Origin: Acidobacteriota bacterium
Lineage (GTDB): Bacteria > Acidobacteriota > UBA4820 > DSQY01
NCBI GenBank assembly: GCA_040752915.1
Contig: JBFMHB010000002.1
Span: 13,967 to 77,966, forward strand
Reading direction: 5' to 3'
DNA length: 64,000 bases
The notes below the pieces were generated by a model. The model saw nothing but the letters and a program-made list of their open reading frames with translations. It was not told the DNA's origin and did not search any database. How positions within the stretch are numbered: position 1 is the first letter of the stretch; each line of letters begins with the position of its first letter. The position numbers and the translations under genes were made by a program. This document shows, in pieces, positions 10,245 through 36,490 of this stretch.

Positions 10245-12452
10245 TCAGGGGCACGTGCTCGTTGTGTCGATCAGGCTGTTTCCGCACAGCCCCGAAGCGC
10301 TCGTGCTCCGCTGGCTCTCCACTCCGCCGACGCGCTTGAGCCCCCAGGAACTCTCCATGGGGCCCGAATCGCCCACGATGATCCAGAAGGTGTTCCCCGA
10401 GGGCGGGGTCCAGGAGGAGCCGCTGGTGATGCCGCACACGGAGCCGGTCCAGCCATAGGTGGACACGCTCGAGAGGGGGCCGTAGTACAGGTTGTAGGAG
10501 GGGGCCGGACAGGTCGTGGAGTCGAAGGTCACCGTGATGTCCGACCCTGACTTGACCCCGCGCGCGGGCGAGGTGCCTCCCCGCCCGTCGGGCGCCGGGG
10601 CCACGGAGCAGGTCTGGATGGTCACGGCGTGCCCCGCCGAGGTGCCCGAGCACCCCGAGCCGTTGGTATAGGAGACCGTGTAGGTTCCGCTCTCCGTGGC
10701 CGTGTAGGCGGCGCTGTTCGTCCCCACGGGGTTCCCGTTTTTTCTCCACTGGTACGAGGACATCCCGCTTTCCGTGCTCAGAGCCACCGTGGTGGCCGGG
10801 CAGGTGTTGGTGGAGTCCCCCGTGATCGTGGGGGTGGCGGGCTGGTAGGCGTCGGTGCCCGACACCGTGGACGTGGACGCCTCCTCGCCGCAGGTGTTGA
10901 TGTACTTCACCGAATAATCGTAGGCCGTGTTGTTCGTGCCGCCCGTGTCCACCCAGGAGGTGGCGCCGTAGGCGATGTAGCCCGAGGCGTCGGTGGCGCC
11001 GCGGAAGACGCGATAGCCCCGATCGGGGCTGGAAAGGCCCTCGTCCCCCCAGGCCGTGGGAGCGGCCGCCCAGGTGATCCGGGCGCCGTCGTCGGCGCAG
11101 ATCCCGTTCTCGTCCGTGACGGACGGGGCGGACAATCCGGAGGGCACGTCGCAACAAGGCGTCGCGGAGCAGGATCCTCCGCTCTCCCAGGCCGCCACCT
11201 TAACGTCGTCCACCATCCAGTAATACCCGTAGTGGCCCAGGTACCGGAAGCGAACGCGGACGTCGGAGTGGCCCGCGGCCAGGTCGCTGAGGTCCAGGAC
11301 CACGGGAACGGACTCGCCGGGATCGGCTTCCGGCGGGAACCCCCCGGCGGGAGGATTCCCCACGCTCACGCGCCAGGTCTCCACCGTCTGCCACGTGGTT
11401 CCCCCGTCGGTGCTCACGTCCACGAACGCCGACTCCTCGTGGCCCGTTTGGAACGCCCAGAGAAAAGAACGGAAGGTCAGGTCCACGGAAACGGCGTCCG
11501 TGCAATCCAGGGACGGCGAGACCAGGCTGTCTTCCTGGATTCCCCCCTCCCCGTAGTGGTCCGAGTCCAGAATCTCCACGTACCCGCTCATGCCCTCGGG
11601 GAGGGGACGCTCGGCCGGATTGGCGGTGGTCCAGGTCTGGCCCGCGTCTCCACCGTCCTCGAGGCTCCAGCCCGTCGGGGGATCGTCTTCGGAGAAGTCC
11701 TCCTCGAGCAGGTACGCAGCCGGGGACCCCACCGGAATGACGAAGGTCTCCTGCCAGGACCCCTGTTCGCAAGTCATCGTCACCGTGAAGGACATGCGCG
11801 CGCCGCAGGGAACGTCTCGGCCGATGTCGACGGTGAACGAAGCGTCCTCCGGCTGGAAAAACAGGGTGGTATCGTAGGCCTCCACCGTGTCGAGCGAAAC
11901 GGAGGAGGGGGTGACGGTCACCCCGGACGTGGAGGTGGACACCGCGACCTGAGCGGCGGTGGCATCCGTTCCCCCCCGGTTGAGGATCCTCAAGGTCAGA
12001 TCAAGGGTCTCCCCCGGGCCGGCCAACCCGTCTCCGGGACTTGAATCGCAGGAGTCCATCCACCAATGGGAAGCGACCTCCAGCCGGGCGCAGTCCAGCG
12101 TGAACAGGTGGTACTGCCCCCCGTCGTCTTCCGTGGTGGTTCCATCCTGGTTGCTGGAAGTGACCGAGAAGAGGTACGTGTCGCAGGGCAAATCCGTGAG
12201 CGTGATGGAATGGGACGTGCCCGCTTCCTCTACTTCCACATAAGAGCCCAGGGCGCGGGTGGGACCGAAATCCACGCGGCTGTCGGCGGCCTCGTTGGTC
12301 GTCCAGGTCACCGTGGCCGTGGTATCCGTGATTTCGCTGACCTGCACGTCCGTGATGACCGGCCCCGCCCACAAGGCGGACGAAAGGGCCGCAATCCACA
12401 CCGCGACCGAGAAAAGCCCCGCCCGGGTTCCCCGTCTTTTTGCCCTACCCAT
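10245..12452 (-). CDS. Large secreted protein 'A' (~735 aa): signal peptide, Fn3-like repeats, MAM-like/choice-of-anchor-J-like domain (YWMVDDVKV), and the shared C-terminal Cys-bearing domain.
   Basis: Signal peptide MGRAKRRGTRAGLFSVAVWIAALSSALWAGP. TDVQVSEITDTTATVTWTTNEAADSRVDFG is an Fn3 module. The C-terminal domain ends ...GLCGNSLIDTTSTCP. Confidence 0.7.
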   Translation of the reverse strand: MGRAKRRGTRAGLFSVAVWIAALSSALWAGPVITDVQVSEITDTTATVTWTTNEAADSRVDFGPTRALGSYVEVEEAGTSHSITLTDLPCDTYLFSVTSSNQDGTTTEDDGGQYHLFTLDCARLEVASHWWMDSCDSSPGDGLAGPGETLDLTLRILNRGGTDATAAQVAVSTSTSGVTVTPSSVSLDTVEAYDTTLFFQPEDASFTVDIGRDVPCGARMSFTVTMTCEQGSWQETFVIPVGSPAAYLLEEDFSEDDPPTGWSLEDGGDAGQTWTTANPAERPLPEGMSGYVEILDSDHYGEGGIQEDSLVSPSLDCTDAVSVDLTFRSFLWAFQTGHEESAFVDVSTDGGTTWQTVETWRVSVGNPPAGGFPPEADPGESVPVVLDLSDLAAGHSDVRVRFRYLGHYGYYWMVDDVKVAAWESGGSCSATPCCDVPSGLSAPSVTDENGICADDGARITWAAAPTAWGDEGLSSPDRGYRVFRGATDASGYIAYGATSWVDTGGTNNTAYDYSVKYINTCGEEASTSTVSGTDAYQPATPTITGDSTNTCPATTVALSTESGMSSYQWRKNGNPVGTNSAAYTATESGTYTVSYTNGSGCSGTSAGHAVTIQTCSVAPAPDGRGGTSPARGVKSGSDITVTFDSTTCPAPSYNLYYGPLSSVSTYGWTGSVCGITSGSSWTPPSGNTFWIIVGDSGPMESSWGLKRVGGVESQRSTSASGLCGNSLIDTTSTCP

Positions 12453-12637
12453 GGACACCCCTCCCCCGCCCCGCCGGGGCGACTCGAAGGTGCTGCACGG
12501 GAACAAGATAGCCCCGGACGGGGCGGAGGGCTACTCGAAGGGACCTCGGGCTCGGCGGGCTCGCGTGAAATGTGCGTGGGCTCACGGACTTGCACGCGAC
12601 CAGAGCAGGCTCCGTGCCGGCCGGACGCCCAGGCGCC

Positions 12638-15535
12638 TCACGGACAGGCGGTTGCGGTGCTCTTGGCGGTGAAGCCGCACTGGTTGGAGGCGGCGGGGTG
12701 GCGCTCACTCCCCGCCGAGTCCCTTCCCCAGTGACTTTCCATGGCCTCCCCGTCGGTTCCCACGAGGACCCACCAGATGAAGGCCTCCCCCACGGGCACG
12801 GAGGGAGAGGTCCACGCATAGGTCCCCGAGGGCCCCATCCCGCAGACGGCGCCCGAAAGCGCACAGGCCGACAGACCGCTGGCCACGCCCCAGTAAAGGT
12901 TGTAGTCCGGGCTCGCGCAGGTGAAGACGTCCCACGCGATGTCCACCTGGCTTCCGTCCCCATTGGCTTTTGAGGCCCTCGCCGCCGTTCCGGTCACCCA
13001 CCGGCCGTCGGGCACCGGCTTGACCGCGGCAGTCCCCCCCGCGGCGGCGCACGGCTCCACGCTCTCCGCCTCGACGCGCACGTTGTCCACCATCCAGTAC
13101 CACTCGTAGCTCCCGTTGTAGTACCGGAAGCGCACCTGGGCGTCGGAGGCCCCCGCCGCGCGGCTCGTCAGGTCGAGCGTCTCGTGCTCCGGATTCGCCG
13201 TGCTCGCCCCCGTCCACCGGCCCACGTTCTGCCAGGCCCCCGACGTCCGGCTCGACCGGACGTCCACGTCGCACACCTCGCTCTCGTACCGGTAGAAGTA
13301 GTGGTCGAACTCCAGCGTCACCGACGTGGCCGCCGATAGGTCCAGCACCGGCGTGATCAACTGCTCGTCTTGTGTCGCCCCCGTTCCCGCCTCGTCGCTG
13401 TCCACGATGGCGAAGGGATCCGTGATGGGCGCCGTGGCGTTTCTCCCCCCGGGGTTCGACGTCGTCCACGTGGAGGCCGCGCCCCCTCCCGATCCGCCGT
13501 CCACCACCGTCCACGTCCCGGGGATCCCCGACCCGAAGTCCTCGTCCAGCGCCGTGAAACTCGAGTGGCTGCCGGTGGGGGTGCCGGAACGGACGAGGAG
13601 GTTCCCGTCCTCCTGACCGGTCCCGCCGTCCACGGCCCGAACCACGTAATGGTACGTTGTCCCAAGGGCCAGGCCCGCCGCGTCCCGGAAGGCCGTCGCC
13701 ACGATCCCCCTGGCGATGCGGGTCGAGGCATCGGGGACGAATCCCGCGGAGGTGGACCGGTACACGTTGTAGGTCACCGAACTTCCGCAATACGAGGCGG
13801 CCGCTTCCCAAGACAGGTCCAGGGAGCAGGTCGCCTCTCCAGGGTTCACCACGGAGGACAGGCCCGAAAAGGAGGGGGGCTCGGTGCAGGGCCCCGTGGT
13901 CACCGCTTCGGCGCAGTCGCTCGGGGCCGAAAGGCAGTGGCCGGTGGCGTCCAGGGCCTGGATCCGGTAGGCGTAGGGGACGCCTCCCGAGGCCCCTTCG
14001 TCCGTTAAGGCCGCGGAGGCCGTTTCGCCGAGAACCAGGGCCTCCTCCCCGGATGCGCACCCCCCCCTCGTCCGGAGGACCCGGTAGGTCAGGCCACCTC
14101 CCCCAGGGGTCCAGGCCACCTCGACGCGGTTCTCTCCGGCCGGCGTCGCCGAAACGCCGGTGGGAACGGCGGGCGGTCCGCACAGGGGGTCCGCCAGGTG
14201 GGCCAGGGTGGCCACGTAGGCCTTCACGGCCGAGTAGAAGAAGCCGGGCGATCCGCAGTTCGCCCGGGTGTCGTTGGACGTGTGGTAGTAGGGATAGTGG
14301 CCGGCGTGGCTGCAGTATCCCTCGTTGTCCGTGATCCCGCAGACGGCCGACCACCCTTTCTGCCAGAAGGGATAGTGGTCGCTGGCCGTCAGGCTCGCGC
14401 AGGAGAAGGCATCCACCGGACAGCCGGTGGCATACGCCGAAGCGCAGTCCGCAAACAGGAGTCCGAGCCACTGGGAAGACGCGTTGTAATTGAGGTCCAG
14501 GTTTTCCGCCGCGGGAGAGCCATCCCCCTGCCAGCCGATCATGTCCGCGTTGAGGACCGCCTGGATTTGCTCTCCGCGGGCCTGGGCGTCGTCGGCGTAC
14601 GCCGCGCTCCCGTACAGGCCCTGCTCCTCCCCCGTGCAGGCGATGAACTTGACGGTATTGGCGAAGGCGTAGGGCGCCATGGCCCGGGCCGCGGCGGTGA
14701 CGACGGCCGCACCGCTGGCGTTGTCGTCCGCCCCGGGGGCGGCCCCCGAGGAGGGCATGTCATCCAGGTGGCCGATCACGATGTAGACGCGTTCCGGATT
14801 CGTCCTCCCGGTAAGGGTCCCGATGACGTTCGGCGCGTAGCCCGCGCGGTAATCCTGGAGCGACGGGCTCAGGCCCCATTCGGCGAACTCGTCGAAGACG
14901 CCCTGGACCGCGGTCTGGCACCCGGAACTCAGGGAGTGCCGGGTGGTGTAGGTATTCGGGAACCGGCCGCCGATGACCGCGTCCCATGCGCCCGAAAGGG
15001 TGGAAGGGTCCAGGGAGTCCACGAGGGACTGGACGAGAGGCTTGGGCGTGACGGCCAGCGGCTCTCCCCGTCTCTGCCTTTCTGCGTACTCCGGCGGAGG
15101 CGGATCTGGAAGCGCAAGCGGGCGAAAATCCAGGATCTGGAAGAACCAGCGGGGAGACTGGACGCATTCCTCGGGGACATCCCCCTCGAAGCGGAGGAAC
15201 GCGAGATTCTCTTCGAACCGGAGGACTTCGCCGCACGCTCTCTGGAAATCGGGCGACCATCCATCCCTCAACCCCGCCACCGCGTAGGTGGCGCCCTCTT
15301 CCCGGTGATCCAGGATTTCGGCATCGTATCCGAGACGGCGGAGGGTGTCCTCCGGGCCCGCTCCGTCCGCCAGGGCCAGAAAGCCCGACTCGTACTCGTA
15401 AACCAGTTGGACTCCCGCGGAGAGCAGGAGGGCGCGGTCCTCCACGGTGCGCCGTTCGATGCGGAGGATCTCCGCGGCGGCCGTCCCCGGCGGTGCCCAC
15501 AGAATCAAGCCCAATGCCAGGGCCGGCCACTTCAT
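12638..15535 (-). CDS. Giant secreted M28-family aminopeptidase-like protein 'B' (965 aa): signal peptide, M28 zinc-peptidase domain, Fn3 repeats, MAM-like domain, shared C-terminal domain.
   Basis: M28 motifs VIGHLDDMP (His-Asp), DDNASGAAVV (Asp), ACTGEEQGLYGS (Glu-Glu) and VLNADMIG. Signal peptide MKWPALALGLILWAPPGTAAA. The C-terminal domain ends ...NQCGFTAKSTATACP. Confidence 0.8.
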   Translation of the reverse strand: MKWPALALGLILWAPPGTAAAEILRIERRTVEDRALLLSAGVQLVYEYESGFLALADGAGPEDTLRRLGYDAEILDHREEGATYAVAGLRDGWSPDFQRACGEVLRFEENLAFLRFEGDVPEECVQSPRWFFQILDFRPLALPDPPPPEYAERQRRGEPLAVTPKPLVQSLVDSLDPSTLSGAWDAVIGGRFPNTYTTRHSLSSGCQTAVQGVFDEFAEWGLSPSLQDYRAGYAPNVIGTLTGRTNPERVYIVIGHLDDMPSSGAAPGADDNASGAAVVTAAARAMAPYAFANTVKFIACTGEEQGLYGSAAYADDAQARGEQIQAVLNADMIGWQGDGSPAAENLDLNYNASSQWLGLLFADCASAYATGCPVDAFSCASLTASDHYPFWQKGWSAVCGITDNEGYCSHAGHYPYYHTSNDTRANCGSPGFFYSAVKAYVATLAHLADPLCGPPAVPTGVSATPAGENRVEVAWTPGGGGLTYRVLRTRGGCASGEEALVLGETASAALTDEGASGGVPYAYRIQALDATGHCLSAPSDCAEAVTTGPCTEPPSFSGLSSVVNPGEATCSLDLSWEAAASYCGSSVTYNVYRSTSAGFVPDASTRIARGIVATAFRDAAGLALGTTYHYVVRAVDGGTGQEDGNLLVRSGTPTGSHSSFTALDEDFGSGIPGTWTVVDGGSGGGAASTWTTSNPGGRNATAPITDPFAIVDSDEAGTGATQDEQLITPVLDLSAATSVTLEFDHYFYRYESEVCDVDVRSSRTSGAWQNVGRWTGASTANPEHETLDLTSRAAGASDAQVRFRYYNGSYEWYWMVDNVRVEAESVEPCAAAGGTAAVKPVPDGRWVTGTAARASKANGDGSQVDIAWDVFTCASPDYNLYWGVASGLSACALSGAVCGMGPSGTYAWTSPSVPVGEAFIWWVLVGTDGEAMESHWGRDSAGSERHPAASNQCGFTAKSTATACP
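13078..13556. repeat. Copy 1 (in gene B) of a ~480 bp near-identical nucleotide cassette encoding the MAM-like domain. Copy 2 lies in gene C at 15966-16442.
   Basis: Read directly: long runs such as gttgtccaccatccagtaccactcgtagctcccgttgtagtaccggaa...ctcgaccggacgtccacgtcgcacacctcgctctcgtaccggtagaagtagtggtc occur in both genes with only scattered mismatches. The encoded peptides are about 98% identical. Confidence 0.85.
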
Positions 15536-15572: not shown

Positions 15573-18500
15573 CTACGGGCAGGCGCCCGTGGGATCGATG
15601 TGGCGCGGGCCGGCGGATGCGCTTCCGGGGTGACCGTCCCCCCCGGGATTCCAGCCGGTGACGAGGTACCAGAGGACTCCTCCCGGGGCCGCCGCGGGAT
15701 CGTCTGAAAGACCCGTGGCTTCTGGCAATCCGAGGTTGTCCAGGCGTTTGCAGGAATCCAGGCCGCCGTCGAGCAGGGCCGAGAGGTCCGCGAGGACGCC
15801 TCGGTAGAGGTGGTAGTGATAGGCTTCTGTGTTGGAGCCCCATTCCAGGGTCGAATCGTCGGTCCACTTCATGTGGGTGGCCGGAGTGCCCGCGGTTTCG
15901 CCGGGGGCCGCGGCGGGCACGCAGGCGCTCATGGCGCACCCTCCGGGAGCGGTGTAGGTGACCCGAACGTTGTCCACCATCCAGTACCACTCGTAGCTCC
16001 CGTTGTAGTACCGGAACCGCACCTGCGCGTCGGAGGCCCCCGCCGCGCGGCTCGTCAGGTCCAGGGTCTCGTGCTCCGGATTCGCCGTGCTCGCCCCCGT
16101 CCACCGGCCCACGTTCTGCCAGGCCCCCGACGTCCGGCTCGACCGGACGTCCACGTCGCACACCTCGCTCTCGTACCGGTAGAAGTAGTGGTCAAACTCC
16201 AGCGTCACCGTCGTGGCCGCCGATAGGTCCAGCACCGGCGTGATCAACTGCTCGTCTTGTGTCACCCCCCAGCCCGCCTCGTCGCTGTCCACGATGGCGA
16301 AGGGATCCGTGATGGGCGCCGTGGCGTTTCTCCCCCCGGGGTTCGACGTCGTCCACGTGGAGGCCGCGCCCCCTCCAGATCCGCCGTCCACCACCGTCCA
16401 CGTCCCGGGGATCCCCGACCCGAAGTCCTCGTCCAGCGCCGTTCCGGACCCTGGTACGGGCTGGCCCAGCATCACGGAGAAGGTGTCGTCCCAGGCGCCC
16501 TGGTTCGAGACCAGGTGCAGGGAGAAAGTCGCCGACGTACCGCAGGAGACCGAGGGGTCCGCGAAGACCCGGAAGTGGGGCGGATCGGAGGCGCGCTCCT
16601 CCCCGGAGGGAATGTCGGAATAGGATGCCGAATCGACCAGCACGAGGATGCCCGGCGTCGAGGTGGAGAGGCTCCCCAGGACCGCCGTGGCGCCGGAGGT
16701 TCCCACGTTTTCCGCCGTCACGGCAAGGATGGCCTCCTCCCCCGCGTCCCAGACGCCGTCTCCGCCTCCTCCCCCCGAGCCGGTGCAGGCGTCCGTCAGG
16801 AGGTGGGAGGCGTAGGCCAGTTCGGCCCCACAGGACTGGGCGGGGAAGGTGAAGCTCAGGCTCCAGGAATCGATGGTTCCCGTGTCCGAACCTGCGTCGT
16901 CCACGACCTTCAGGCCCCAGTTCCCCGCCGCCACCTGGCCGTCGAAGGCCGACAGGGAGCCCTCGGGACGGAAGGTGCCTGTGAAGGGAGCCGTCCCCCC
17001 CGTGATGGACGAGGAGGCCTCGTCGTCCAGGACCGTCTCCGTGAAGTTCTCGCCCGAGCCGCCGTTGTCGGTGGAGAGTTCGACCTGGGTGCCCTGGGGG
17101 CTCACGAGATAGATGTCCAGATCGCCGTCGTAGGTGTGGGTGATGGAGTGGATGGTCACGTTCACGTCCACGATGACCTTGTCGTCGGGCACGGACAGGA
17201 CCGAGGTCACCCCTGCCGGGTTCGCGTCGGGAATGGCCAGCCCCGGGGTCTCGGTGCGCGTGTAGGTGGGCGCGCTCGTGACGCCCGTCGTAAAGGCGTA
17301 GTAGGCGCCCCCGTTGTCGTCGGAAGAGGAGTTGCCGGCGGGGTCCGCCGAATCCACGGCGTAGTAGTAGCCCCGGCAGGCTTCCAGGGCGCTCAGCGTC
17401 ACCGAGTGAGCCGTCCCGTACGCCGCGTCGGACCCCGTGGAGGAAGGCGGGACGGATGTGCCGTACCGCACGCGCGAGTCGGCGGGCTCGTCCGTGGTCC
17501 ATGTGACGGTCACGTTTTGGCCGCTCACGGAAGCCGAGACGTCGGAGATGACCGGGGCCCGGCAGTCCCCGGAGGCCGTTCCGTCCACGTCGACGTTCGG
17601 GGTCCCGCAGTAGTCCGCGTCCACGTAGCGCACGGTCAGGGTGGCTCCGTCGGTCATGCGGACCTCGGAGGGACCGGGTGTGGACGAATCCGTGGTGGCG
17701 ACGGTGCCCGTGTAGACAGCCGACCCCGGTGGAGTATTGGACAGGGTGAAGCTCTTGTGGCTTCCGTCGGCGGTGGACCAGGCTTCCACCGCAAGGGTGG
17801 CGGGCGAGCCGGGGACGTTCGAATCCACTACGGTCACCCCCACGGAGTCCGTGCACCGGACGACCGCCTTGGACAGGGACACGGATCCCGCGCAGGGCAT
17901 GGGGGTCACCGTCGCGCAGGCGCTCATGGCGCTCACGCAGGAATCGCTTGCGGTCGCGGCCTGCACGCGGTAGAAGTAGGTGATCCCGTTGACAACGGTC
18001 GTGTCCGTGTAGGCGAGGGAGGGGGCGTTCACCGTGGCCACCTTGGTGAACCCCGCGTCGCAGTTCATCTCGTTCCGGTAGATGAAATAGCGCGTCGCGT
18101 TCGGCCCGCCGGAGGTCCAGGTCAGGAGCGCCGAATCGCTCCCCGCGGCCACCGAAGCCGTGGGAACGGTCAGGGAAGGACAGGAGGTCTGGTTCTGGTT
18201 GGTGGCGTCGCCCGCGGACCCGCAGGCGATTCCGTGGCGGGCGAGGCTGGAGTAGATCGCCGCCGCGTGGGGCGTCCCGTTGGCCGTCCCGTCCCCGTCG
18301 TCGTCGAAGGCCCTCATGGTCGAATACAGGCTCCCCCCGTTGCAGCCGTTGGAGGTCGGGGGCGTGCAGGTGTACATGTTGCCCAGAGTGGGCATGCTCG
18401 AATAGAAGAGGCGGTCCGCGAGCTGCCAGGCCGTGGGAAGGTCCAGGCCGCACAGGGCCGGCAGATCCCGGTTCACGAAGTCCCACAGGGCCTGGGTGGA

Positions 18501-20481: not shown

Positions 20482-20507
20482 AAGGGCGGCCCCGAAAGGC
20501 CGCCCTT
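20482..20507 (-). terminator. Terminator-like hairpin downstream of gene D (perfect 10 bp stem aagggcggcc / ggccgccctt, loop ccgaaa).
   Basis: The inverted repeat was read directly. It lies 53 bp below the D stop on the minus strand. The T-tract is weak. Confidence 0.5.
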
Positions 20508-24149: not shown

Positions 24150-24174
24150 CTCCGGTGTTGGACCGACCAGAGCC

Positions 24175-27399: not shown

Positions 27400-29748
27400 T
27401 TACAGGTTTCGACTCTCCAGTAACAGCCGAGAGGCACTTCGAACGTACTTGTTTTCCGACCGGGCCAAACGGGAAAGCGCCTGACCGTCCAGGGTCTCGA
27501 GGAGAGCTTCCGCCCAGGCGAGGACGTCCACTTCCGCATACTGACGCCGGATAGTCTCCGCTCCAGAAACCGCCTTGCCCTGGAAGGCCTCCATTTTCCC
27601 AGGTCTACGCCCCCACAGAGTGCGGTCCAGAAAAACACGATCCTCGGGGCCCGAGACACGCAGAGTCAGGACCTGCACCCAGGCGCGTGCCCGGGGGGGA
27701 GGGTAGGGCGTGGCCCCATCCCTGGAATACCTAACGTCCTGCCAGCGGCTTCTGTAGGAGAGATCCAATCGTCCCAGGACCTCCTCCAAGAGTGGATCGG
27801 CCAACATGCGCTGGAGGGGTACGAGCCTCGACACCGACTCGCCTTCTTTTCGGAGTTCCAGGATTCTCCTTGCCGCATCGTCGGGAGAGACCGGTCCCGA
27901 GGGATCGCCCATCCACTTTCGGAGGAGGCCCGTATCCTCGATTCGGGAGAGTGCGGCGGCCCGAACGGCGGGGTCGCCATCAGTCCTGGCGGTGTCCTCA
28001 AGGACCTCCGGGTCCGAGCATTCAAGCACACCTTCCATGCGTCGTTCCGGATCAGCCTGCCGGTGCAGCCACCCTCTCAGTCCGCCGATCTCGTCCAACC
28101 GCCTGATGGCCGCGACACGAACATCCACATCCGGGTCCATCGAGGCGATCCGGCCCAGCCGATCCAGGTTCCTGATCCGGTCGGCCGCTGCCCGCCGCAC
28201 GACCCAGTCCGCGTCAGATTCTGAGACCCGGCCGATGACCTTCTCGTCGTTGATTCTCCGCAAGGCCGCCAGCCGGACGTGCGGGCTGGCATCCTGGAAC
28301 AGTACCAGCGCAAGAGATTCCTCCGAAACCAGCCGGCTCGCAGCAATGGCGCGCACATTCGGAGACGGATCGGTGGAGGCGGCCGTCCGAAAGAGACTCT
28401 GGTCATCCGAGACTTGGAGGAGGGCGGCGGAACGGACCTCCGGGGACGGGTCGTTGCGAGCGGCCGTTGCGAGGACCGCCTCTTCCCGGATGCGCCGGAT
28501 GGCAGAAGCCCTTACCCGGGGGCTGGCATCTCTCCGAAAAACCTCCACGAGGGACTTGGCGTCGGAGATTCGTGAGACGGCCCGCGCCCGGACCTCCGGT
28601 TCGGAGTCCGAGTAGGCGATTTCCAGGAGAAGCTCCGGCAGATCCAACTGCCCCACGGCCGCTGCCCGAACCCTTCCGTCCGCGTCGGATCGGGCCAAAT
28701 GGGCCCGTGTCTCCTGAGAACGAAGGCCCTCCGCCGCCGCTGCTCGAACCAGGGGATCTTCGTCCGCGACGGCCACGGAACTGAGGAAAACCTGGTCGTC
28801 AATCCGGCGGACGGCTTCCCTTCGAACGACGGCGCTCGCATCCTTCCGGACCAGGACCTTCAGAACCTCCTCCGTCGGAAGCAGCTCCACGGCCTGACGT
28901 CGAGTCTCCGGATCGGGGTGGTCCGCGACCACGTGATCCAAGGCGCCCAATTCTCGAAGCCGCCGAAGAGCGAGGGCCTTCGTCTCCCGATCTTGGCTGC
29001 GGTCCAGGAGCACCTTGAGGTGGTCGGGGTTTGACAACCTGGCGATTGCGAGCATTTTGGGCCGTGATTCGACTTCTTGGAGGACGGCGAGGCGGAGAAA
29101 GGAAGGATTTGAAAGGCCTTTGACGGCCGCCTGTCGAACCTCCACCTCAGGATCCGAGACCGCCGCGTGAAAGCGCGCCTCCTCCGAAAGGAGCCTTTCC
29201 ACGGCGTTTCGGCGAACCACCCAATCGGGATCTCCAAGGGCCGTCTGTTCCAAAAGGGCCTGATCCTGGACCCGGTCAATCGCTTCCGCCCTGAGGAACC
29301 AATCGCCCTCCCGAAGAATGTCCTCCAGAAAGACCGGATCGTGGAGGCGCCGAATGGCTTCCATCCTCGCCCCTTTGCTCGATGCGCATCGGGCCACCCG
29401 CCAGAGATCTTCCTGATCCTTGAGTTGCAAGACGGCGGCTACAGCCTCCATTTCGTCCTGGCTTTGAACGGCAACCGACAAGAGGCCCGAGGGGGAGCCC
29501 TCGGGGATCACCTCTCCCCCGAGGCCATTGGCGTTCGATCCGACCACGGGCGGCATCACCTTCTCGCAAGGTTCAGAAGCCTGAGAGGCCGCTGTCCACC
29601 CAAGCATCAGTCCTGTGCCCCATAGGACCATCAGGGGTAACGTGGAGAACACGATCCCGATCCTCCCACCCCACTGAGCACCCCGGTTCACCATGCCTCC
29701 GCCCGCCTTCCCCAACACCCGCCCCCCTCCCTCTGGGCGACCTCCCAC
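27400..29748 (-). CDS. HEAT-repeat protein (about 14 tandem PBS-lyase-type HEAT-like repeats) with an N-terminal signal peptide or TM segment. It is embedded in the protease array 22 bp upstream of gene E. The start is ambiguous: 29748 or 29694.
   Basis: Recurring ~31 aa units: DPDWVVRRNAVERL, DPEVEVRQAAVKGL, EPEVRARAVSRI, SPRVRASAIRRI, DVDVRVAAIRRL and others. N-terminal hydrophobic stretch FSTLPLMVLWGTGLMLGWTAASQA. Confidence 0.7.
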   Translation of the reverse strand: MGGRPEGGGRVLGKAGGGMVNRGAQWGGRIGIVFSTLPLMVLWGTGLMLGWTAASQASEPCEKVMPPVVGSNANGLGGEVIPEGSPSGLLSVAVQSQDEMEAVAAVLQLKDQEDLWRVARCASSKGARMEAIRRLHDPVFLEDILREGDWFLRAEAIDRVQDQALLEQTALGDPDWVVRRNAVERLLSEEARFHAAVSDPEVEVRQAAVKGLSNPSFLRLAVLQEVESRPKMLAIARLSNPDHLKVLLDRSQDRETKALALRRLRELGALDHVVADHPDPETRRQAVELLPTEEVLKVLVRKDASAVVRREAVRRIDDQVFLSSVAVADEDPLVRAAAAEGLRSQETRAHLARSDADGRVRAAAVGQLDLPELLLEIAYSDSEPEVRARAVSRISDAKSLVEVFRRDASPRVRASAIRRIREEAVLATAARNDPSPEVRSAALLQVSDDQSLFRTAASTDPSPNVRAIAASRLVSEESLALVLFQDASPHVRLAALRRINDEKVIGRVSESDADWVVRRAAADRIRNLDRLGRIASMDPDVDVRVAAIRRLDEIGGLRGWLHRQADPERRMEGVLECSDPEVLEDTARTDGDPAVRAAALSRIEDTGLLRKWMGDPSGPVSPDDAARRILELRKEGESVSRLVPLQRMLADPLLEEVLGRLDLSYRSRWQDVRYSRDGATPYPPPRARAWVQVLTLRVSGPEDRVFLDRTLWGRRPGKMEAFQGKAVSGAETIRRQYAEVDVLAWAEALLETLDGQALSRLARSENKYVRSASRLLLESRNL

Positions 29749-29923
29749 GCGCCTGGCCGCCGGCGGCTCGAGCAGATTGCAGCAATCCGCGTCAAAAGCT
29801 TTATTCTAGCAGCCCCCAAGGTATGGGGCTTCGCTCTCCGACTCCTCGTCGCCTCTCTTGGCGAGATCAAACAGGTGGGGCGGGCCGGAGCCCGCCCCGT
29901 TTGAATCCGATGCCGGGCTTCTC

Positions 29924-32900
29924 CTACTTGTCGCAGTACGCATCTGCCGTGCGGGCCGTGCCGGAGGAGTTGTTCCCCAGGCTCCCCTCCGTTCCGAAGC
30001 CGTTGTCCGCCGTCACCAGGAAGTACAGCACCTGCGTGCTTCCCGTGATCCCGCTTTCCAGATCCACCAGGGACATCCTCAGCATTCCCGGCTCCGCGTC
30101 CGGCGTCCATCCCGCCCACGCGCAGTCCCGCTTTCCGTACTGCGGGTCCGCCACCTGGAACGCCGACGTGTTGGGGCTGTTGGACACGTAGACCTGATAA
30201 TGGCTCGCCGTCACGTCCTCGAAGACGATGTCCGTCGCGCTCCCGTTCTTGTACGCCTTCAGCGGGTGGTCCGCGCTTCCCGACACCTCCCCCGCCATGC
30301 AGGGCGAAATCGTCACCGCGTGGCCCCCCGACGTGCCCGCACACCCCGAGGCGTTCGTGTAAGACACGGTGTAGGTGCCCGACGCGGTGGCCGTATGCGT
30401 CGCGCTGTCCGTGCCCACGGGGCTCCCGTTCAGGTACCACTGGTACCCCGTCATCCCCGATTCGGTGCTGAGATTCACGGTCGAAGCCGGGCAGGTGTTG
30501 GACGAAGCTCCTGAAATGGCCGGCGCGGGCGTGGCGTCCTCGTCCGAAGCCGCGGACCCGCCCGTCTCGGCCTCCATCCCGCACGCGTTCTTGTACCGCA
30601 CGCTGTAGGTGTAGCTCACGCCCGGCAAAGCCGTCGCGTCCGTCACCGACGTCGTCCCGTAGGCCACCTCCGCCTGAAGGACGCTCCCGTCCCGTAGCAC
30701 GTCGTAGGTCCTCGTCCCCGACACGTCGCCCCACGACCCCGGGTCCGCCGGCCAGCTCACCGCAATGCCGTCGTTCGCGCAGGCGCTCGCGTCCACGGCC
30801 GTCACGCTCCCCACCGACGAAGGCGCCGCGCACGACGTGCACGTGCCAACGGTTGTAACGCTCACTTCCACGTCGTCGATAAACCACCCGAGGGATGCCG
30901 TATTGCAGTCGACTATTACGCAGAAGGCGATCCAGACGGTTTTTCCGGCCGCCCCCCCGACATTGCCAGAAATGGCGTTGCAAGCAGCATCCAAGTCCAG
31001 GACCGTATTGACCAGCGTGCTTTGTGTGTCTGTCCAAACAGGCAGTCCAGCCGCATAATCAGGAGGACAGCCGTTCGTTCGAATTGTGTTGGTATAGGTG
31101 TTCTGCAAGATGGCGGCGGAGGGAACCAATGTGTAATTCGAAGCGTCTGTTGAAACGGCCAGCAGTGCTCCGTCATACCGATTCTCAAAGCTCCAGCGAT
31201 GCCAGAAACTCATCCTGGCGGACGTTCCATCCGCGGGCACAGCAATCCCAGAAGCGCCGTTTGGCTGTGCAAAGGTGAAGTGTGAAACCACAGTCGTCAA
31301 GCCCGTGCAGGTGGAGGCTCCGTACCGGAATACGTGAGTCCCACTGCTCGAAGGCGAGCAGGACTGTATCCCACGCCAATCGGTCAACGTTCCGGTACCG
31401 CTAAAATACCCTGTTGTCCAGTCGCTCAGCCCCGAGCCGGATTCAAAATCGTTGAAATACAAGATCGAAGTACTCGCCGTTCCCGGCGCGGCGCCGCGCT
31501 CGGTCGCGTTCGCGTCCTCCAGCCCGTTGACCGTCTCCACCGCCCGCACCACGTAGTAGTACGTCGTCCCGCTCTGGACGCTCGCATCCGTCCACGTCGT
31601 ACCCGTCAAGCCGCTCTCGATCTGGTTCGACGGCCCCGGCGTGAAGCCGCTCGCCGTGTCCCGGTACACGTTGTAGGTCACGCCCCCTCCGCACGAGGAG
31701 GCCGCCGCGCTCCAGGCCAATTGCAGGGAGCACGTGGCCCCCGACACCGCCGTCACGGAAGTCAAACCCGAAAAGGTCGGCGGATTGATGCACGGCGCAG
31801 CGGGCGTCGTGGCCTCCGCGCAGGCGCTGTAGGCCGACTCGCAGACCCCGGACACCGCCGTCACCACGTAGGCGTACGTCGTGCTCCCGCCCGCCGTTCC
31901 GTCGCTGTAGGTGGTGGCGGCCACGGGCCCGCCCGTCGTCAGCTTCGTGTAGGCCCCCTGGGGGCACGTTCCCGTGGCTCGGTACACGTGGTACGCGCTC
32001 GCCCCGCCCACGGGGCCCCAGCTCAGGTCCACGTTGTTGTAGGCCGTAGCCGTGGCCGAGAGCCCCCCCGGCGCCCCCGGCGTCCCGTTCGCGTCCGTCC
32101 CCGCCGTCGCGTTCGACCAGGGCCCCGTGCAGGAGGCGCTCCGTCCCCGCGCCGCATACGTGTGCGAGGCCGTATCCCCCGGCGAGTACACGTAGGGACT
32201 CGTCACGCCCGAGAGCGTCGTCGTCCCGTCCACCAGCAGGTCGTACGCCGTCGCCCCCGCCACCGCGTGCCAGGTGACCTGCACTCCGCTCAGCGCGCAT
32301 GCGCTCACGTCCCCCACCAGCGGCGCCGCCGGCGCCAGGAGGCCGTTCACGTCCGTCCCCGCCGTCGCGCCGGACCACGCTCCCGTGCAGGAAACCGTCC
32401 GGGCCCGCACCGCATAGGTGTGCGAATTGGAGTTCCCCGGCTCGTAGAAATACGGGCTCGTCACACCCGAAATCGTCGTGGCCCCGTCGATCAGGAGATC
32501 GTAGGCCGTCGCTCCCGAGACCGGGCCCCAGGACACGTTCACTCCCGTCAAGGCGCAGGCGTCCGCGTCCGTCACCGCGGGCGCCGAGGGCGTCCCCGGC
32601 GTCCCATTCGCATCCGCGTAGCTTTGGGCGCCGGAATCCGTCGTGCACGTCTCCACCACCGCCTGGACCACGTAGCTGTGGGAGGACGTGTCCCCGGGGT
32701 TGTACAGCGCGCCGGAGGCATACCCCGCCACCGCCACCGACCCGTCTCGCAGCAGGTTGTGGCTCGTGGCTCCGGAACCCGCCGTGTACGACACCCGGAT
32801 CCCGCTCTGCGCGCACCCCGACTCGTCGGCGAATCCCGTGATCTCCGGCGCGCCGGGCGGCGTGCATGAAGTGCCGGTGGTGCACGTGCCGTATCCCGTA

Positions 32901-35900
32901 ATCAAGACATCGTCGATGGCGGCCTCGATCAGACCGCCGACGACGGTCCCGTCGGCCGCGCGCACCCGGATCCGCATGGTCGAAGTCAAGCCGACGTAGT
33001 TCTCCAGTTGGAACGTGACGTTCGTCCATGTGTTGTGGCCGGTTACCGAATCCGGCAACGATTCGAGCTGGACCCACGTGGACCCTCCGTTGTTGGACAC
33101 CTCAAGATAGTAGTAGTCACCCGAATCGTCGTTGGTGTATTCGTTGAGAAACCACCGCCACAGCGAGAGCGTCGCCGAGGCATATCCGGAGGCGTCGAAA
33201 ATGGGCGATGTTGCGATGACCTCCCCGCCGTCCACGTCGTCCGTCCCCGCGGCCCCCGCCGGGTTCGCCGCCGTGTACAGGGAGTTCACGCCGGGGGAGG
33301 CGGTGTGGTCGTCCTCCGGCTGAGATGGCTCACCCAGGTTCCCGGTCGTTCCGACGGGATCTCCGATCACGAAATCACCCGTCGTGGCGGCGGGGGAGCC
33401 CTTCGCGAAGGTCCATCCGAGATTGCCCCCCTCAAAGGTGTCCGAGAAGAGCGTCGCGGAGCCGCCCGTGGGCGTCCCCGACCTCTCCACGAGGTTCCCG
33501 TCCTCGAGGCCGTTCGCCGAATCGTAGGCACGAACGACGTAGTAGTAAGTCGTTCCGTTCGAGAGCCCGACGGAGTCGGTGTAGGAGGTCCCGGTCCACC
33601 CCGCGTAGAGGCGGTTGGAGAAATTCGGGGTGAAGCCGCTCGTCTCCGACCTGTATACGTTGTACGTGACACCCCCCCCGCAGTTCGAGGACCCGGCGGA
33701 CCAGGAGAGTTGCAGGGTACACGTGGCGCCCTGGGAGTTCGTCACGGAAGTGACACCCCCGAAGGCGGGAGGAAGGGTGCATACCCCCGTGGCGGTGGCT
33801 TGGGCGCAGGCGGATTGGAGGGACTCGCATCCGCCCGTCGAATCGACGGCGGAGACCTTGTAGGAGTAGGTCGTGCCCCCGCTCACCGTGGAGTCCGTGT
33901 ACGGGGAGGACGTGAGGCCCGAGGCGATGACGGAGAAGGCCCCCGGCGCGGCGCACGTCCCCACGGCGCGATACACCCTGTAGGTGGCGCCCGCCGGGGT
34001 TCCGGCGCTCCAGGGGATGGTCAACTGGTTGTCGCCCGGAACCGAGACGGTGCCGATGGTCGGCGTCCCCGGGGTGGTGCAGGGAGCGGGCGTAACGGTC
34101 ACGCAGTTGCTCATCGGGCTCACGCAGGCATCGCTGGAGCCGATCGCCTGCACGCGGTAGTAGTAAGTCACACCGTTGGCGAGGGGCGTGTCGGTGAAGG
34201 AGGTGGACGGGGCCATCACGGTGCCGACCTTGGTGTAGCCCGCGTCGCACCCGGTCTCGTTGCGGTAAACGTAGTACTTCGCGGCGTTGGCGACCGTCCC
34301 CCACGAGAGGGAAGCCTGCGTATTGCCGGCCGCCCCCGAGAGAACGGGCGCCACCAACGCGGGGCAGCAGTTGGCCTGGTCCGTATTGACCACCGTCGTG
34401 CAAGCGATCTTGTGGCGGTTGAAGGCGTTGAAGATGGCGCTGGCGTGGGGTGTGCCGTTGCTGAGATCTCCGTCGCAATCGTCCACCACCCGGAAGGTCG
34501 TGAAGTAGTTGCTGGTGGCGCAGCCGTTGGAAGTGGTCAGGGACGGGCAAGCGTAGGCCGAACCGGACGTGGACCGGCTGGCGTACCAGAGGCGGTCCAT
34601 CAGCTGCCATGCCGTGGCCGCATCGAGCCCCCACGCCGTCAGGTCCCGCACGGGGAGATCCCACATCGCCTGCGAGGAGATCAGGGACTCGCAGTGGCCT
34701 TCGTAACCGCAGGGCCCGTCGTAGGAGGGGTTCGTGTCGCAATTGAAGCCGCTGGAATTGTCCAGAAAGGTCGGATCGTACGGCGTGTTGGAGGCGTGCT
34801 TGGCGTAATCGATCTCGCGGATGCCGGAGCAGCTCAGGCAGCAGTCGCCGTACCCGGAGCAGTTGTATCCGACGGTGGTCGTTCCGCACCCCCGGTTCAT
34901 CGTGTAGAAGAACCCGCCGCCGGCGCAGGATCCGTGAGTCTGGAGAACCCCCGAAAAGTCGCCGTAGGTTTCCCCGGTGCCGTTGTCCCCTGCCGGCGAG
35001 CCATCGTTGGAGTCCAGCCCGTGGGCCCATTCGTGGAGAGACACGCCGGGCAGTTCGCCGGTGTTCCAGCAACCTCCGCCGGACCGGAAGAAGTTGATGG
35101 ACGTTCCATCCCAATAGGCGTTGCATGTATCCGAAATGTTGACGTGGTCGGTGATCCTTCCTTGGAGCCACGTATTTCCGGGGAGGTACGTGAAGGCTTT
35201 GATCTTGATCATGGATACGTTGTAATACTGCGTCCGGGAGGCCCTCGTGTTTCCCGCCCCGCCTCCGGGGCTGCTGCAGTCGGTCGCGGCGCTGGTTCCA
35301 AAGTTGATGAGCCCCGAAGCGTCCGAGGCGAGCGAGATGGACCCACAATCGTCCACGATGTCCACGCCGCCCACGTTGCCCGCGCTTCCCGTCCTTCCCG
35401 TCATGGTGCTCGTTCCGCTCGTCCCGGGAAAACTGCCGACGATGTCGGCCCAGGCGGACCCGCTGTAGTCCGCGTAAGGGAACGGCACGATGACTTCGGT
35501 GGCGGGCTGGTCGGTCTTGTACACGCCGCCCTGGATGCTCCCGTAGCGGTTCGCGTCCACGAATTCGAGAAGTTCCCCGTTGTGGGCGTCTACCCTGGCC
35601 TGCCACGTGCCCATCACGCCGGGCCGACGGAAGCTCATTTCATAGACAAGGCGGTATCGGAGGCCCTGTCCCCCCTGGACCAAGACCCGCGAGAGAGTCT
35701 CCGGCGCGGAGACGGGGACGATCAAGAGCCGCCCGGGCTCCAGGACTTGATCTTGCGGCGAAGGCCCGCCGATGAACCCGTACAGGATCTGCCAGGCGGT
35801 CTCGGCGGTGATGGCCGGAAGGGGGTCCAGCCCCCGGATGGCCTCGGGGTTCACGAACTCCTGCCCCACCTGCACCAAGTTCCCGTGATTCAGACGGAAG

Positions 35901-36490
35901 ATGAGGTGGGCCTGATCGACGGGGATGCCGTGGTAGGTCCACTGGAAATTCAAGAAATAGAGGTAGTCGAGGACAGGGCCGGAGCCTTCCGTCACCAATG
36001 CCAGATCGTCGGGCTTCACCCCGAAGAGGTCCGGATAGGCCGCGAGGAACTCCAGAGCGCGACCCGCCACCACTTCCACCGGAACATCCCGCCCTTCCAT
36101 GAACGCCGGCAGCCCCAGGTCATCCCCCTGCAGGGTGTTGGCCGTGCCCGGGATCCATGGAATTCCCCGGCCCTCCAAATGCGCGGGCCGTCCCGTTACC
36201 CGGTCAAAAAGCATGATCCAGCGGCCGCCGCGGTCGGTGAAGAAGCGGTCCCAGTCCCCCAGGACCGGAGCGAGCGCTTCGATTTCCGCCCGGGATGCCC
36301 CGGCCCGGTATTCGTCCACGGAAACCGTCTGGGAGGTGACCCATGTTTCCGGTTTCGCGAAGGACAGGGAATCCAGGAGGTCCTTGTCCTCCTTCACCAC
36401 CTGCGCCGCCACGGCCAGGGGCAGGAGTGTCGCCATGCCGAGACCCAGAAGAAACCGCACGCCCCGCCGCGCCACCCAGCATCCGACCAT
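29924..36490 (-). CDS. Giant secreted HExxH zinc metalloprotease 'F' (2188 aa), a paralogue of C. It has a propeptide-like N-terminus, a Cys-rich catalytic domain (HEWAH), more than 8 Fn3 repeats, two MAM-like domains, and a shared C-terminal domain ending YCDK.
   Basis: GVSLHEWAHGLDSNDG aligns with the catalytic region of C. Signal peptide MVGCWVARRGVRFLLGLGMATLLPLAVAAQ. Repeated ~95 aa Fn3-like modules (...TYRVYRA..., ...YNVYRSE...). Confidence 0.75.
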   Translation of the reverse strand: MVGCWVARRGVRFLLGLGMATLLPLAVAAQVVKEDKDLLDSLSFAKPETWVTSQTVSVDEYRAGASRAEIEALAPVLGDWDRFFTDRGGRWIMLFDRVTGRPAHLEGRGIPWIPGTANTLQGDDLGLPAFMEGRDVPVEVVAGRALEFLAAYPDLFGVKPDDLALVTEGSGPVLDYLYFLNFQWTYHGIPVDQAHLIFRLNHGNLVQVGQEFVNPEAIRGLDPLPAITAETAWQILYGFIGGPSPQDQVLEPGRLLIVPVSAPETLSRVLVQGGQGLRYRLVYEMSFRRPGVMGTWQARVDAHNGELLEFVDANRYGSIQGGVYKTDQPATEVIVPFPYADYSGSAWADIVGSFPGTSGTSTMTGRTGSAGNVGGVDIVDDCGSISLASDASGLINFGTSAATDCSSPGGGAGNTRASRTQYYNVSMIKIKAFTYLPGNTWLQGRITDHVNISDTCNAYWDGTSINFFRSGGGCWNTGELPGVSLHEWAHGLDSNDGSPAGDNGTGETYGDFSGVLQTHGSCAGGGFFYTMNRGCGTTTVGYNCSGYGDCCLSCSGIREIDYAKHASNTPYDPTFLDNSSGFNCDTNPSYDGPCGYEGHCESLISSQAMWDLPVRDLTAWGLDAATAWQLMDRLWYASRSTSGSAYACPSLTTSNGCATSNYFTTFRVVDDCDGDLSNGTPHASAIFNAFNRHKIACTTVVNTDQANCCPALVAPVLSGAAGNTQASLSWGTVANAAKYYVYRNETGCDAGYTKVGTVMAPSTSFTDTPLANGVTYYYRVQAIGSSDACVSPMSNCVTVTPAPCTTPGTPTIGTVSVPGDNQLTIPWSAGTPAGATYRVYRAVGTCAAPGAFSVIASGLTSSPYTDSTVSGGTTYSYKVSAVDSTGGCESLQSACAQATATGVCTLPPAFGGVTSVTNSQGATCTLQLSWSAGSSNCGGGVTYNVYRSETSGFTPNFSNRLYAGWTGTSYTDSVGLSNGTTYYYVVRAYDSANGLEDGNLVERSGTPTGGSATLFSDTFEGGNLGWTFAKGSPAATTGDFVIGDPVGTTGNLGEPSQPEDDHTASPGVNSLYTAANPAGAAGTDDVDGGEVIATSPIFDASGYASATLSLWRWFLNEYTNDDSGDYYYLEVSNNGGSTWVQLESLPDSVTGHNTWTNVTFQLENYVGLTSTMRIRVRAADGTVVGGLIEAAIDDVLITGYGTCTTGTSCTPPGAPEITGFADESGCAQSGIRVSYTAGSGATSHNLLRDGSVAVAGYASGALYNPGDTSSHSYVVQAVVETCTTDSGAQSYADANGTPGTPSAPAVTDADACALTGVNVSWGPVSGATAYDLLIDGATTISGVTSPYFYEPGNSNSHTYAVRARTVSCTGAWSGATAGTDVNGLLAPAAPLVGDVSACALSGVQVTWHAVAGATAYDLLVDGTTTLSGVTSPYVYSPGDTASHTYAARGRSASCTGPWSNATAGTDANGTPGAPGGLSATATAYNNVDLSWGPVGGASAYHVYRATGTCPQGAYTKLTTGGPVAATTYSDGTAGGSTTYAYVVTAVSGVCESAYSACAEATTPAAPCINPPTFSGLTSVTAVSGATCSLQLAWSAAASSCGGGVTYNVYRDTASGFTPGPSNQIESGLTGTTWTDASVQSGTTYYYVVRAVETVNGLEDANATERGAAPGTASTSILYFNDFESGSGLSDWTTGYFSGTGTLTDWRGIQSCSPSSSGTHVFRYGASTCTGLTTVVSHFTFAQPNGASGIAVPADGTSARMSFWHRWSFENRYDGALLAVSTDASNYTLVPSAAILQNTYTNTIRTNGCPPDYAAGLPVWTDTQSTLVNTVLDLDAACNAISGNVGGAAGKTVWIAFCVIVDCNTASLGWFIDDVEVSVTTVGTCTSCAAPSSVGSVTAVDASACANDGIAVSWPADPGSWGDVSGTRTYDVLRDGSVLQAEVAYGTTSVTDATALPGVSYTYSVRYKNACGMEAETGGSAASDEDATPAPAISGASSNTCPASTVNLSTESGMTGYQWYLNGSPVGTDSATHTATASGTYTVSYTNASGCAGTSGGHAVTISPCMAGEVSGSADHPLKAYKNGSATDIVFEDVTASHYQVYVSNSPNTSAFQVADPQYGKRDCAWAGWTPDAEPGMLRMSLVDLESGITGSTQVLYFLVTADNGFGTEGSLGNNSSGTARTADAYCDK

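Follow-up and report, generated by a model that had tools for sequence, protein, structure and literature searches.

A strictly C-terminal, uncatalogued domain family on modular proteins encoded between siroheme and gcv genes in an Acidobacteriota bacterium

A 64,000-nucleotide stretch of the genome of an Acidobacteriota bacterium (GenBank assembly GCA_040752915.1, contig JBFMHB010000002.1, positions 13,967 to 77,966 of the forward strand; hereafter the window) contains an array of seven long co-oriented minus-strand open reading frames (ORFs) at positions 10245-36490: genes A to F and an embedded gene, H. An initial annotation made from the sequence read this array as six giant secreted peptidase-like proteins with a related C-terminal domain. 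The most interesting and novel element of the locus is this C-terminal domain, here called the tail, to which the initial annotation gave too little weight and which represents a strictly C-terminal and uncatalogued domain family. The lesser new finds are two unannotated families of N-terminal domains, one made up of the heads of C and F and the other of the head of E. The composite explanation that we propose, with a confidence slightly above even, is that the interval between the gcv and siroheme genes is a recombination-prone hot spot encoding Sec-exported modular exo-proteins that share a targeting or retention tail.

The six proteins A-F can be aligned over their last 115-130 residues. 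Two tail types are distinguished: the first is found in A, B and E and ends in …TCP, the second in D and F, ending respectively in …YCDGMP and …YCDK. The tail of C is a divergent relative that ends in …GACP. A six-frame search of the whole window recovered exactly six copies, and none of the six isolated tails matched Pfam (E ≤ 5) or NCBIfam (E ≤ 10). Searched against 1.84 billion cluster representatives, the tail profile produced 1,725 matches at E ≤ 1e-3 (397 at E ≤ 1e-10); the positional and cysteine counts that follow are based on the top 149 of these 1,725 representatives. The tail is matched over its full length in 106 of the 149; in the other 43, which are multi-Fn3 proteins, the match is limited to the profile core. 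The full-length matches end three residues or less from the C-terminus in 99 of 106 cases, and all of these 99 terminal tails have a cysteine within their last five residues. Most of them (74/99) finish in Cys-Pro, generally as …TCP-COOH. Of the 74 sequences of this class, 69 have their last two cysteines spaced 11 residues apart and 59 have exactly four cysteines in their last 125 residues, a pattern that would fit two disulfides, one of them closing a terminal loop. The tail is at the 3' end of all 29 tail-bearing frames in the loci fetched from other genomes, and it extends right up to the stop codon in 25 of them. The source of the window is a Thermoanaerobaculia-like metagenome-assembled genome (MAG) of soil or sediment type, and its tails are 89-95% identical to those of the orthologues in a sister MAG, a conservation that equals that of the catalytic heads and exceeds that of most spacer modules. 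Short "tail-only" proteins are fragments and not stand-alone genes, and a homologue search with the tail profile gave mainly short, fragmentary gene calls. No relevant description of an acidobacterial C-terminal domain was found in the literature searched, although the family may have been described elsewhere.

The tail is carried by a wide variety of proteins. Of the carriers with 380 residues or more, 55 appear to be complete; most of these have a signal-peptide-like N-terminus, and the 51 that were scanned contain 34 Pfam families, including Peptidase_S8, Trypsin_2, PAD_porph, Kelch and other propellers, SpoIID, Metallophos, FG-GAP and Chlam_PMP. Such different passengers imply that the tail is not peptidase-specific, contrary to the impression given by the initial annotation, which had described paralogous secreted proteases with a common tail. 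Concerning its origin, the tail profile obtained only weak matches among PDB sequences, all of them to Fn3 domains (tenascin Fn3 and monobodies), and the hhalign comparison with the array's own Fn3 repeats was also weak (E = 0.0096, probability 4%). The PDB matches, together with the 43 multi-Fn3 proteins that match the core, suggest that this core derives from Fn3; as far as the sequences go, they indicate an Fn3-derived, cysteine-stapled domain.

An Fn3-like core would also be expected if the tail were a ligand- or polymer-binding or adhesion module, similar to carbohydrate-binding modules or lectins, that tethers its carriers to a substrate, an exopolysaccharide or prey cells and plays no role in secretion or sorting. 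The position of the tail after the MAM-like binding modules in every protein and the failure to find a sorting machinery nearby are both compatible with this possibility. Nevertheless, such modules normally vary in position and copy number, whereas the tail occurs once per protein, is terminal in 99/106 cases and always has its cysteine near the end (99/99 terminal tails). Moreover, the very different enzymes that bear it are unlikely to have a common substrate. Since the position rule is absolute, each protein has a single copy and the passengers are unrelated, a function in sorting or retention is favored over plain ligand binding, which we consider a rather unlikely but serious rival. Were the tail merely a binding module, the locus would be an ordinary, if unusually large, protein-scavenging cluster.

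The closest analogue of the tail is the C-terminal domain (CTD) of the type IX secretion system (T9SS; Por_Secre_tail / TIGR04183), known from the gingipains and PPAD of Bacteroidota. The T9SS CTD is a folded beta-sandwich of about 80-130 residues, present as a single and strictly C-terminal copy on unrelated exported proteins. Likewise, the array tail is single and C-terminal, occurs several times per genome and is found on diverse cargo, including proteases and a PAD_porph enzyme. Unlike the T9SS CTD, it has four conserved cysteines and the …TCP-COOH end. Another group of proteins that resembles the array is made up of the rhombosortase-, myxosortase- and T9SS-dependent M36 proteins of NCBIfam, with which it shares a thermolysin-clan head with a putative FTP/PepSY propeptide, MAM or choice-of-anchor J modules and a C-terminal tag; E and F match the MAM part of two of these models (NF038111 and NF038112). 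As in the sortase-type signals MYXO-CTERM and GlyGly-CTERM, there is an invariant cysteine near the C-terminus. Nevertheless, in these tripartite signals a short motif is combined with a transmembrane helix and a cluster of Arg residues (Haft 2023, doi 10.1101/2023.06.07.544157), whereas the array tag is a folded domain of about 120 residues. None of the seven proteins has a hydrophobic C-terminal segment, and the maximum Kyte-Doolittle value over 17 residues ranges from 0.45 to 1.11 in their last 60 residues; this lack of hydrophobicity excludes the tripartite signals (PEP-CTERM, MYXO-CTERM and GlyGly-CTERM) for the array tails. A last comparison concerns the C-terminal pro-domains and PPC domains, beta-sandwiches that aid the export of secreted M4 and S8 proteases and are often removed afterwards. 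In contrast to PPC domains, the array tail does not match PF04151 and is also present on proteins that are not proteases.

The following path may be proposed for the array proteins. Their signal-peptide-like N-termini would direct them through Sec across the inner membrane. They would then fold in the periplasm and form disulfides, as suggested by their conserved and evenly numbered cysteines. The tail, a domain of about 120 residues that has four conserved cysteines and whose place must be at the very end of the polypeptide, would next give all of them a common fate, which is either to cross the outer membrane or to be retained on it or on the cell surface; this tail-dependent step is one that we infer from the T9SS CTDs and the C-terminal pro-domains of proteases. 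Finally, the propeptides of C and F would be removed and the enzymes would digest extracellular protein for nutrition, which is in line with the protein-degrading potential reported for related marine Acidobacteriota (PMC8528874). B would contribute an M28 aminopeptidase to the cargo and D an InhA-like endopeptidase of family M6; the other members would be two thermolysin/fungalysin-fold endopeptidases made as zymogens with putative FTP/PepSY propeptides (C and F), a beta-propeller protein of no assigned activity (E) and a head-less binding protein (A), with a common layout consisting of a head, one or more Fn3 spacers, a MAM or choice-of-anchor J beta-sandwich and the tail. In this layout, the Fn3 repeats may serve as stalks and the exchangeable MAM-like modules as binding elements.

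Several observations weigh against this composite explanation. A role of the tail in sorting or retention is put forward by analogy. Neither the window nor the 19 fetched loci contain a co-occurring gene that could encode a matching machinery, and the window has no T9SS machinery (PorV, PorU or Sov). The tails do not match the T9SS models PF18962, TIGR04183 and TIGR04131 at the thresholds given above for Pfam and NCBIfam. To our knowledge, Acidobacteriota have no T9SS. Signal peptides were called by composition and not with a trained predictor, and the structure model of the C head is of moderate confidence (predicted local distance difference test, pLDDT, 71). As E and A are not peptidases, the label of proteolysis island fits only four of the six genes. 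Lastly, given the MAG source, assembly may have affected the precise structure of the repeats.

A more ambitious version, to which we assign a modest chance, is that the …TCP-COOH tail serves as the cargo signal for a new pathway of outer-membrane translocation or covalent surface attachment in Thermoanaerobaculia-type Acidobacteriota. The tail would then be an Fn3-evolved functional analogue of the T9SS CTD and the gcv–siroheme hot spot would be the place where this lineage diversifies the cargo through module recombination. Acidobacteriota are among the most abundant bacteria of soils and sediments and, as far as we know, next to nothing has been established about how they export large hydrolases across the outer membrane. 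Both the T9SS and the sortase-like systems were discovered through this kind of signature, a strictly C-terminal domain on unrelated heads. Since the tail is common to hundreds of protein clusters with unrelated heads, it provides a concrete handle to search for the matching machinery.

The heads of four array proteins (B, C, D and F) are those of metallopeptidases, and their metal-binding motifs are intact. The head of B matches the M28 model PF04389 (8e-33, 114.2 bits against a curated cutoff of 21.3) and has the motifs GHLD at residue 255, DDNASG at 270, GEEQG at 302, NADM at 329 and SDHYPF at 385, which, from what is known of M28 enzymes, we take to be the co-catalytic zinc ligands (His, Asp, Glu-Glu, Asp and His). 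D matches the M6 models PF05547 (1e-17, 64.6 bits against 22) and TIGR03296 (2e-36, 126.3 bits against 110.8), and its HExxHxxGxPDxY motif reads HEGFHTLGGPDLY at residue 409. As in the Bacillus InhA (M6), this M6 domain is followed by MAM-like modules, and E has an InhA-like MAM; unlike InhA, D adds CARDB-like and Ig-like modules as well as the tail, and its host is diderm. The M28 and M6/InhA-like heads that the initial annotation had proposed for B and D are thus recovered above the model cutoffs.

The heads of C and F are more divergent. Both proteins are paralogous (31.6% identity over about 1,500 residues), but their 700-residue heads have no Pfam peptidase match, not even to Peptidase_M4 or Peptidase_M36 at E ≤ 5, and no match among PDB sequences at E ≤ 1. 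NF038113 matches only the propeptide region (E = 0.0016), and the FTP and PepSY matches are below threshold, yet they fall at equivalent positions in C and F. H472, E473, H476, D479, E492 and D496 are invariant among 40 aligned C/F-type heads, and the fold is that of thermolysin, with HExxH and a third Glu ligand, which agrees with the HEWGH/HEWAH metalloprotease heads that had been annotated in these proteins. Compared with thermolysin (M4) and fungalysin (M36), identity amounts to only 12-15%, and the C/F heads are Cys-rich and have long insertions. As modeled, they are a Cys-rich thermolysin-fold peptidase family without a Pfam or NCBIfam model or a sequence relative in the PDB; by sequence model they are not members of M4 or M36, but they would work like the zymogens of these families, and zinc-peptidase activity is predicted. 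A database search returned 89 homologues, most of them unannotated; the family is almost confined to metagenome proteins of Acidobacteriota, from which nearly all the homologues with an organism name come, and head-only versions of about 690 residues exist.

The characterization of a protease array is less applicable to the other proteins. The initial annotation left the heads of A and E unassigned among its six peptidase-like proteins, a description that stands for B, C, D and F and fails for these two. A has no catalytic head at all, its full length being covered by non-catalytic modules (Fn3, Ig-like, choice-of-anchor J and tail among them). The head of E (548 residues) models as an all-beta structure (pLDDT 88, predicted template modeling score 0.89) that fold matches identify as a 7-bladed beta-propeller without a specific structural relative. 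It has no sequence or fold match to peptidase catalytic domains, and a phmmer search of the PDB returned nothing useful. Its family has no Pfam model, contains many invariant Asp, Glu and Arg residues and has at least 2,184 homologues in Anaerolineae (Chloroflexota), Acidobacteriota, Nitrospirota, Zixibacteria and Xanthomonadales, where the head is often fused to P-domain, PKD, MAM or CarboxypepD_reg modules. Two sizeable families without Pfam or NCBIfam models, the thermolysin-fold peptidases and the 7-bladed propellers (more than 2,000 members), are thereby delimited.

The modules that follow the heads come from a common toolkit, as the initial annotation had claimed. Iterated local profiles detected 15 Fn3-like repeats across A, B, C, E and F, nine of which are in F. 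CARDB-like modules are found in A, C and D, choice-of-anchor J modules in A, B and C, and InhA-type MAM modules in D, E and F. The MAM of E matches PF20773 (3e-17, 63.3 bits against a cutoff of 26.9), the choice-of-anchor J modules match NF038128 in B (45.9 bits) and C (41.2 bits; cutoff 30), and that of A is related to those of B and C (local profile, 3e-84). For the MAM-like modules of D and F, the assignment depends solely on internal BLAST and on resemblance to the MAM region of the M36 family. C also has a P-domain (5e-16).

Gene H encodes an exported HEAT-repeat protein. Its orthologues adjoin E in two sister MAGs (loci L006 and L007), and the protein is 71% identical to its sister-MAG orthologue as compared with 89-96% for the neighboring genes. 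The tail could be a dockerin-like module by which the six proteins dock onto a scaffold, perhaps H, as in a cellulosome-like multi-protease surface complex. The presence of one common terminal module on many enzymes would agree with such a complex, as would an exported repeat protein that is embedded in the array, apparently co-transcribed with E and kept beside it in the sister MAGs. Yet H is found in the closest sister MAGs only, other tail-bearing loci are devoid of it, its conservation (71%) is below that of its neighbors (89-95%) and no cohesin-like repeats were found; a docking role is therefore very improbable. For its part, H was rejected as a general partner of the tail, since it is absent outside the sister MAGs.

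The genomic context of the tail was studied in 19 fetched loci. A scan of GTDB species genomes, made with the closest tail subfamily only, identified 15 loci, 14 of them in Acidobacteriota MAGs (several labelled Thermoanaerobaculia) and one in a MAG that bears the label Kiritimatiellae. At least seven of the fetched loci have their tail genes beside siroheme genes, gcv genes or both, in the same interval as in the window. Related MAGs have between one and four tail-bearing genes in this interval, and tandem co-oriented tail genes number four in L006, three in L007 and two each in L009, L010, L013 and L014. The cargo differs between loci: S8 and S53 (Pro-kumamolisin) peptidases, BNR propellers, E-type propellers, M6 heads and C/F-type heads were all observed, whereas the C-head homologues of more distant genomes are solitary. 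In the syntenic interval of a related long-read MAG (L004:2698-10546), an S8 subtilase and an S53 (Pro-kumamolisin) protein carry the same tail, and several tiny gene calls look like frameshift fragments of one larger tail-bearing gene.

Differences are also seen among close relatives. In L006 (10502-16415), A comes directly after D, without C or B between them. In another sister MAG (L005:3-3128), the C orthologue terminates in a B-type tail, just as a recombination between the two choice-of-anchor J modules would be expected to produce. Both the missing C and B and the C–B hybrid could result from assembly collapse in the sister MAGs. Within the array, B and C share a 480-nucleotide DNA repeat with sharp edges that coincides with their choice-of-anchor J modules, while the identity of the flanking sequences is at background level; it points to a recent gene conversion or module swap between these paralogues. 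Similarly, the second MAM-like module of F is only 35.8% identical to that of its orthologue (L006:3-4634), compared with 84-95% for all the other modules of F, which suggests that this module was replaced singly. As judged from these comparisons, the array appears to be an ancestral but variable hot spot that expands and reshuffles through module-level recombination, and it provides clear examples of domain-level recombination in exo-enzyme genes. The possibility of a mobile island was considered and rejected: there are no tRNA genes in the window, the composition is like that of the flanks and the tail genes of relatives are in the same interval.

The MAG source and the near-identical 480-nucleotide repeat inside the array could raise the suspicion of an assembly artefact or a decaying pseudogene cluster. 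However, all seven genes have uninterrupted frames, free of frameshifts and internal stops, and a strong third-position GC bias (GC content of 0.72-0.91 at third codon positions against 0.48-0.59 at second positions, in a window of about 67% GC), which together show that they are real coding frames. The order F-H-E-D-A is conserved in one independently assembled sister MAG and F-H-E-D in a second one, with identities of 71-96% per gene. In addition, identical copies of the proteins are present in several public sources: B, C, D, E and F are identical to proteins of an Acidobacteriota MAG in NCBI, where they are annotated as an M28 peptidase, a P-domain protein, an M6 metalloprotease and two hypothetical proteins, and the database versions of A and H differ in their start codon only. 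An artefact is thus scarcely credible, and the intact co-oriented array described by the initial annotation is confirmed. The true start of A is most likely the ATG at 12452 (MGRAKRRG…), which produces a 735-residue protein identical to database protein P0273, and that of H is most likely the ATG at 29694. The N-termini of all seven proteins have a basic stretch followed by a hydrophobic core, in accordance with the signal peptides that had been proposed.

In the initial annotation, the array was interpreted as a system dedicated to extracellular proteolysis or surface decoration. The genes lie side by side in the same orientation and are built from a common toolkit, and the presence of four zinc peptidases of complementary endo- and aminopeptidase specificity would make sense if the members acted as a unit. 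Nevertheless, the same interval holds different and fewer tail-bearing genes in relatives, with gene content varying even between sister MAGs (C and B are both missing between D and A in L006), other MAGs have S8, S53 or BNR cargo at the same site and C-head homologues stand alone elsewhere. Secretion, processing or regulatory genes were not found beside the array in the window, the rest of which is dedicated to housekeeping. Transcription signals also speak against a single unit, since F, E and D are each followed by a strong terminator-like hairpin and promoter-like sites lie upstream of F and C. The hairpins that the initial annotation had noticed after E and D are real, and similar ones are found after F and after the upstream BNR gene; clear U-tracts accompany those after the BNR gene and E. 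The stems of the four intergenic hairpins are near-identical, consisting of GGGGCGGGC, a loop of 4-5 nucleotides and GCCCGCCCC. As H is only 21 nucleotides upstream of E, both are probably co-transcribed, and the same is probable for C and B, separated by a 37-nucleotide gap. The B-A gap is of about 185 nucleotides and has a weak hairpin only. The units F, H-E, D and C-B, with A either joined to C-B or separate, are thus supported instead of one operon, in agreement with the separate transcripts proposed by the initial annotation, and a dedicated system seems quite improbable. As a protease cluster, the array is ordinary biology on an unusual scale. A common regulatory region upstream of C and F was also considered and rejected, as there is little similarity beyond the promoter-like hexamers.

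Table 1 Coordinates of the array genes, their domains, transcription signals and flanking genes in the window
Feature	Position	Strand	Details
Gene A	10245-12506	-	753 aa as listed ORF; signal peptide, Fn3, CARDB-like Ig, choice-of-anchor-J-like, Fn3, Ig-like, tail
A, choice-of-anchor-J-like	11187-11735	-	
A, tail	10248-10589	-	
Gene B	12638-15535	-	965 aa; signal peptide, M28, two Fn3, choice-of-anchor J, tail
B, M28 aminopeptidase domain	14255-14830	-	PF04389, aa 236-427
B, choice-of-anchor J	13064-13570	-	
B, tail	12641-13033	-	
DNA repeat copy 1, in B	13075-13555	-	97-98% identical to copy 2
Gene C	15573-20234	-	1553 aa; signal peptide, FTP/PepSY-like propeptide, catalytic domain, Fn3, P-domain, CARDB-like, choice-of-anchor J, divergent tail
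C, FTP/PepSY-like propeptide	~19335-20117	-	
C, thermolysin-fold catalytic domain	~18210-19334	-	HEWGH at 18807-18821
C, P-domain	16851-17168	-	
C, choice-of-anchor J	15951-16457	-	
C, divergent tail	15576-15917	-	
DNA repeat copy 2, in C	15962-16442	-	97-98% identical to copy 1
Gene D	20560-24018	-	1152 aa; signal peptide or anchor, M6, CARDB-like, MAM-like, Ig-like, type-2 tail
D, M6/InhA-like domain	22390-23487	-	HEGFHTLGGPDLY at aa 409
D, type-2 tail	20563-20931	-	
Gene E	24175-27378	-	1067 aa; signal peptide, propeller head, two Fn3, InhA-like MAM, tail
E, propeller head	~25744-27081	-	
E, InhA-like MAM	24610-25029	-	
E, tail	24178-24561	-	
Gene H	27400-29748	-	782 aa as listed ORF; HEAT repeats, N-terminal signal or anchor, no tail
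Gene F	29924-36490	-	2188 aa; signal peptide, head, nine Fn3, two MAM-like, Ig-like, type-2 tail
F, head (propeptide-like and thermolysin-fold)	34391-36490	-	paralogous to C; HEWAH at 35021-35035
F, second MAM-like	30842-31486	-	aa 1669-1883
F, type-2 tail	29927-30259	-	
Terminator-like GC hairpin and U-tract after BNR gene	36776-36801	-	-32.1 kcal/mol, z -3.85; isolates F
GC hairpin just after F stop	29867-29904	-	-28.2 kcal/mol, z -4.36
Terminator-like hairpin and U-rich tail after E stop	24113-24154	-	-28.6 kcal/mol, z -3.77
Terminator-like hairpin after D stop	20470-20515	-	-29.6 kcal/mol, z -2.22
Promoter-like TTGACA-17-TAGATT upstream of F	36609-36637	-	consensus match, at regional chance rate
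Promoter-like TTGACA-17-CAGAAT upstream of C	20348-20376	-	consensus match, at regional chance rate
Siroheme genes (TP_methylase protein and NAD_binding_7/SirC-like)	7708-10084	+	flank
BNR/sortilin-like exported protein	36845-39676	-	flank; no tail, outside the tail family
gcvPA/gcvT	41192-44205		conserved hot-spot border together with the siroheme genes

The siroheme genes and the BNR/sortilin-like gene flank the array as initially annotated. Further away, two ORFs of 546 and 759 residues at 54070-58048 have no Pfam match and a GC content (0.60-0.62) below that of the rest of the window. In the siroheme flank, the C-terminal part of the uroporphyrinogen methyltransferase (TP_methylase) protein, encoded at 7708-9414, resembles the "Dimerisation"/HTH domain of O-methyltransferases, an architecture that is also present at the equivalent position in the related MAG of L004.

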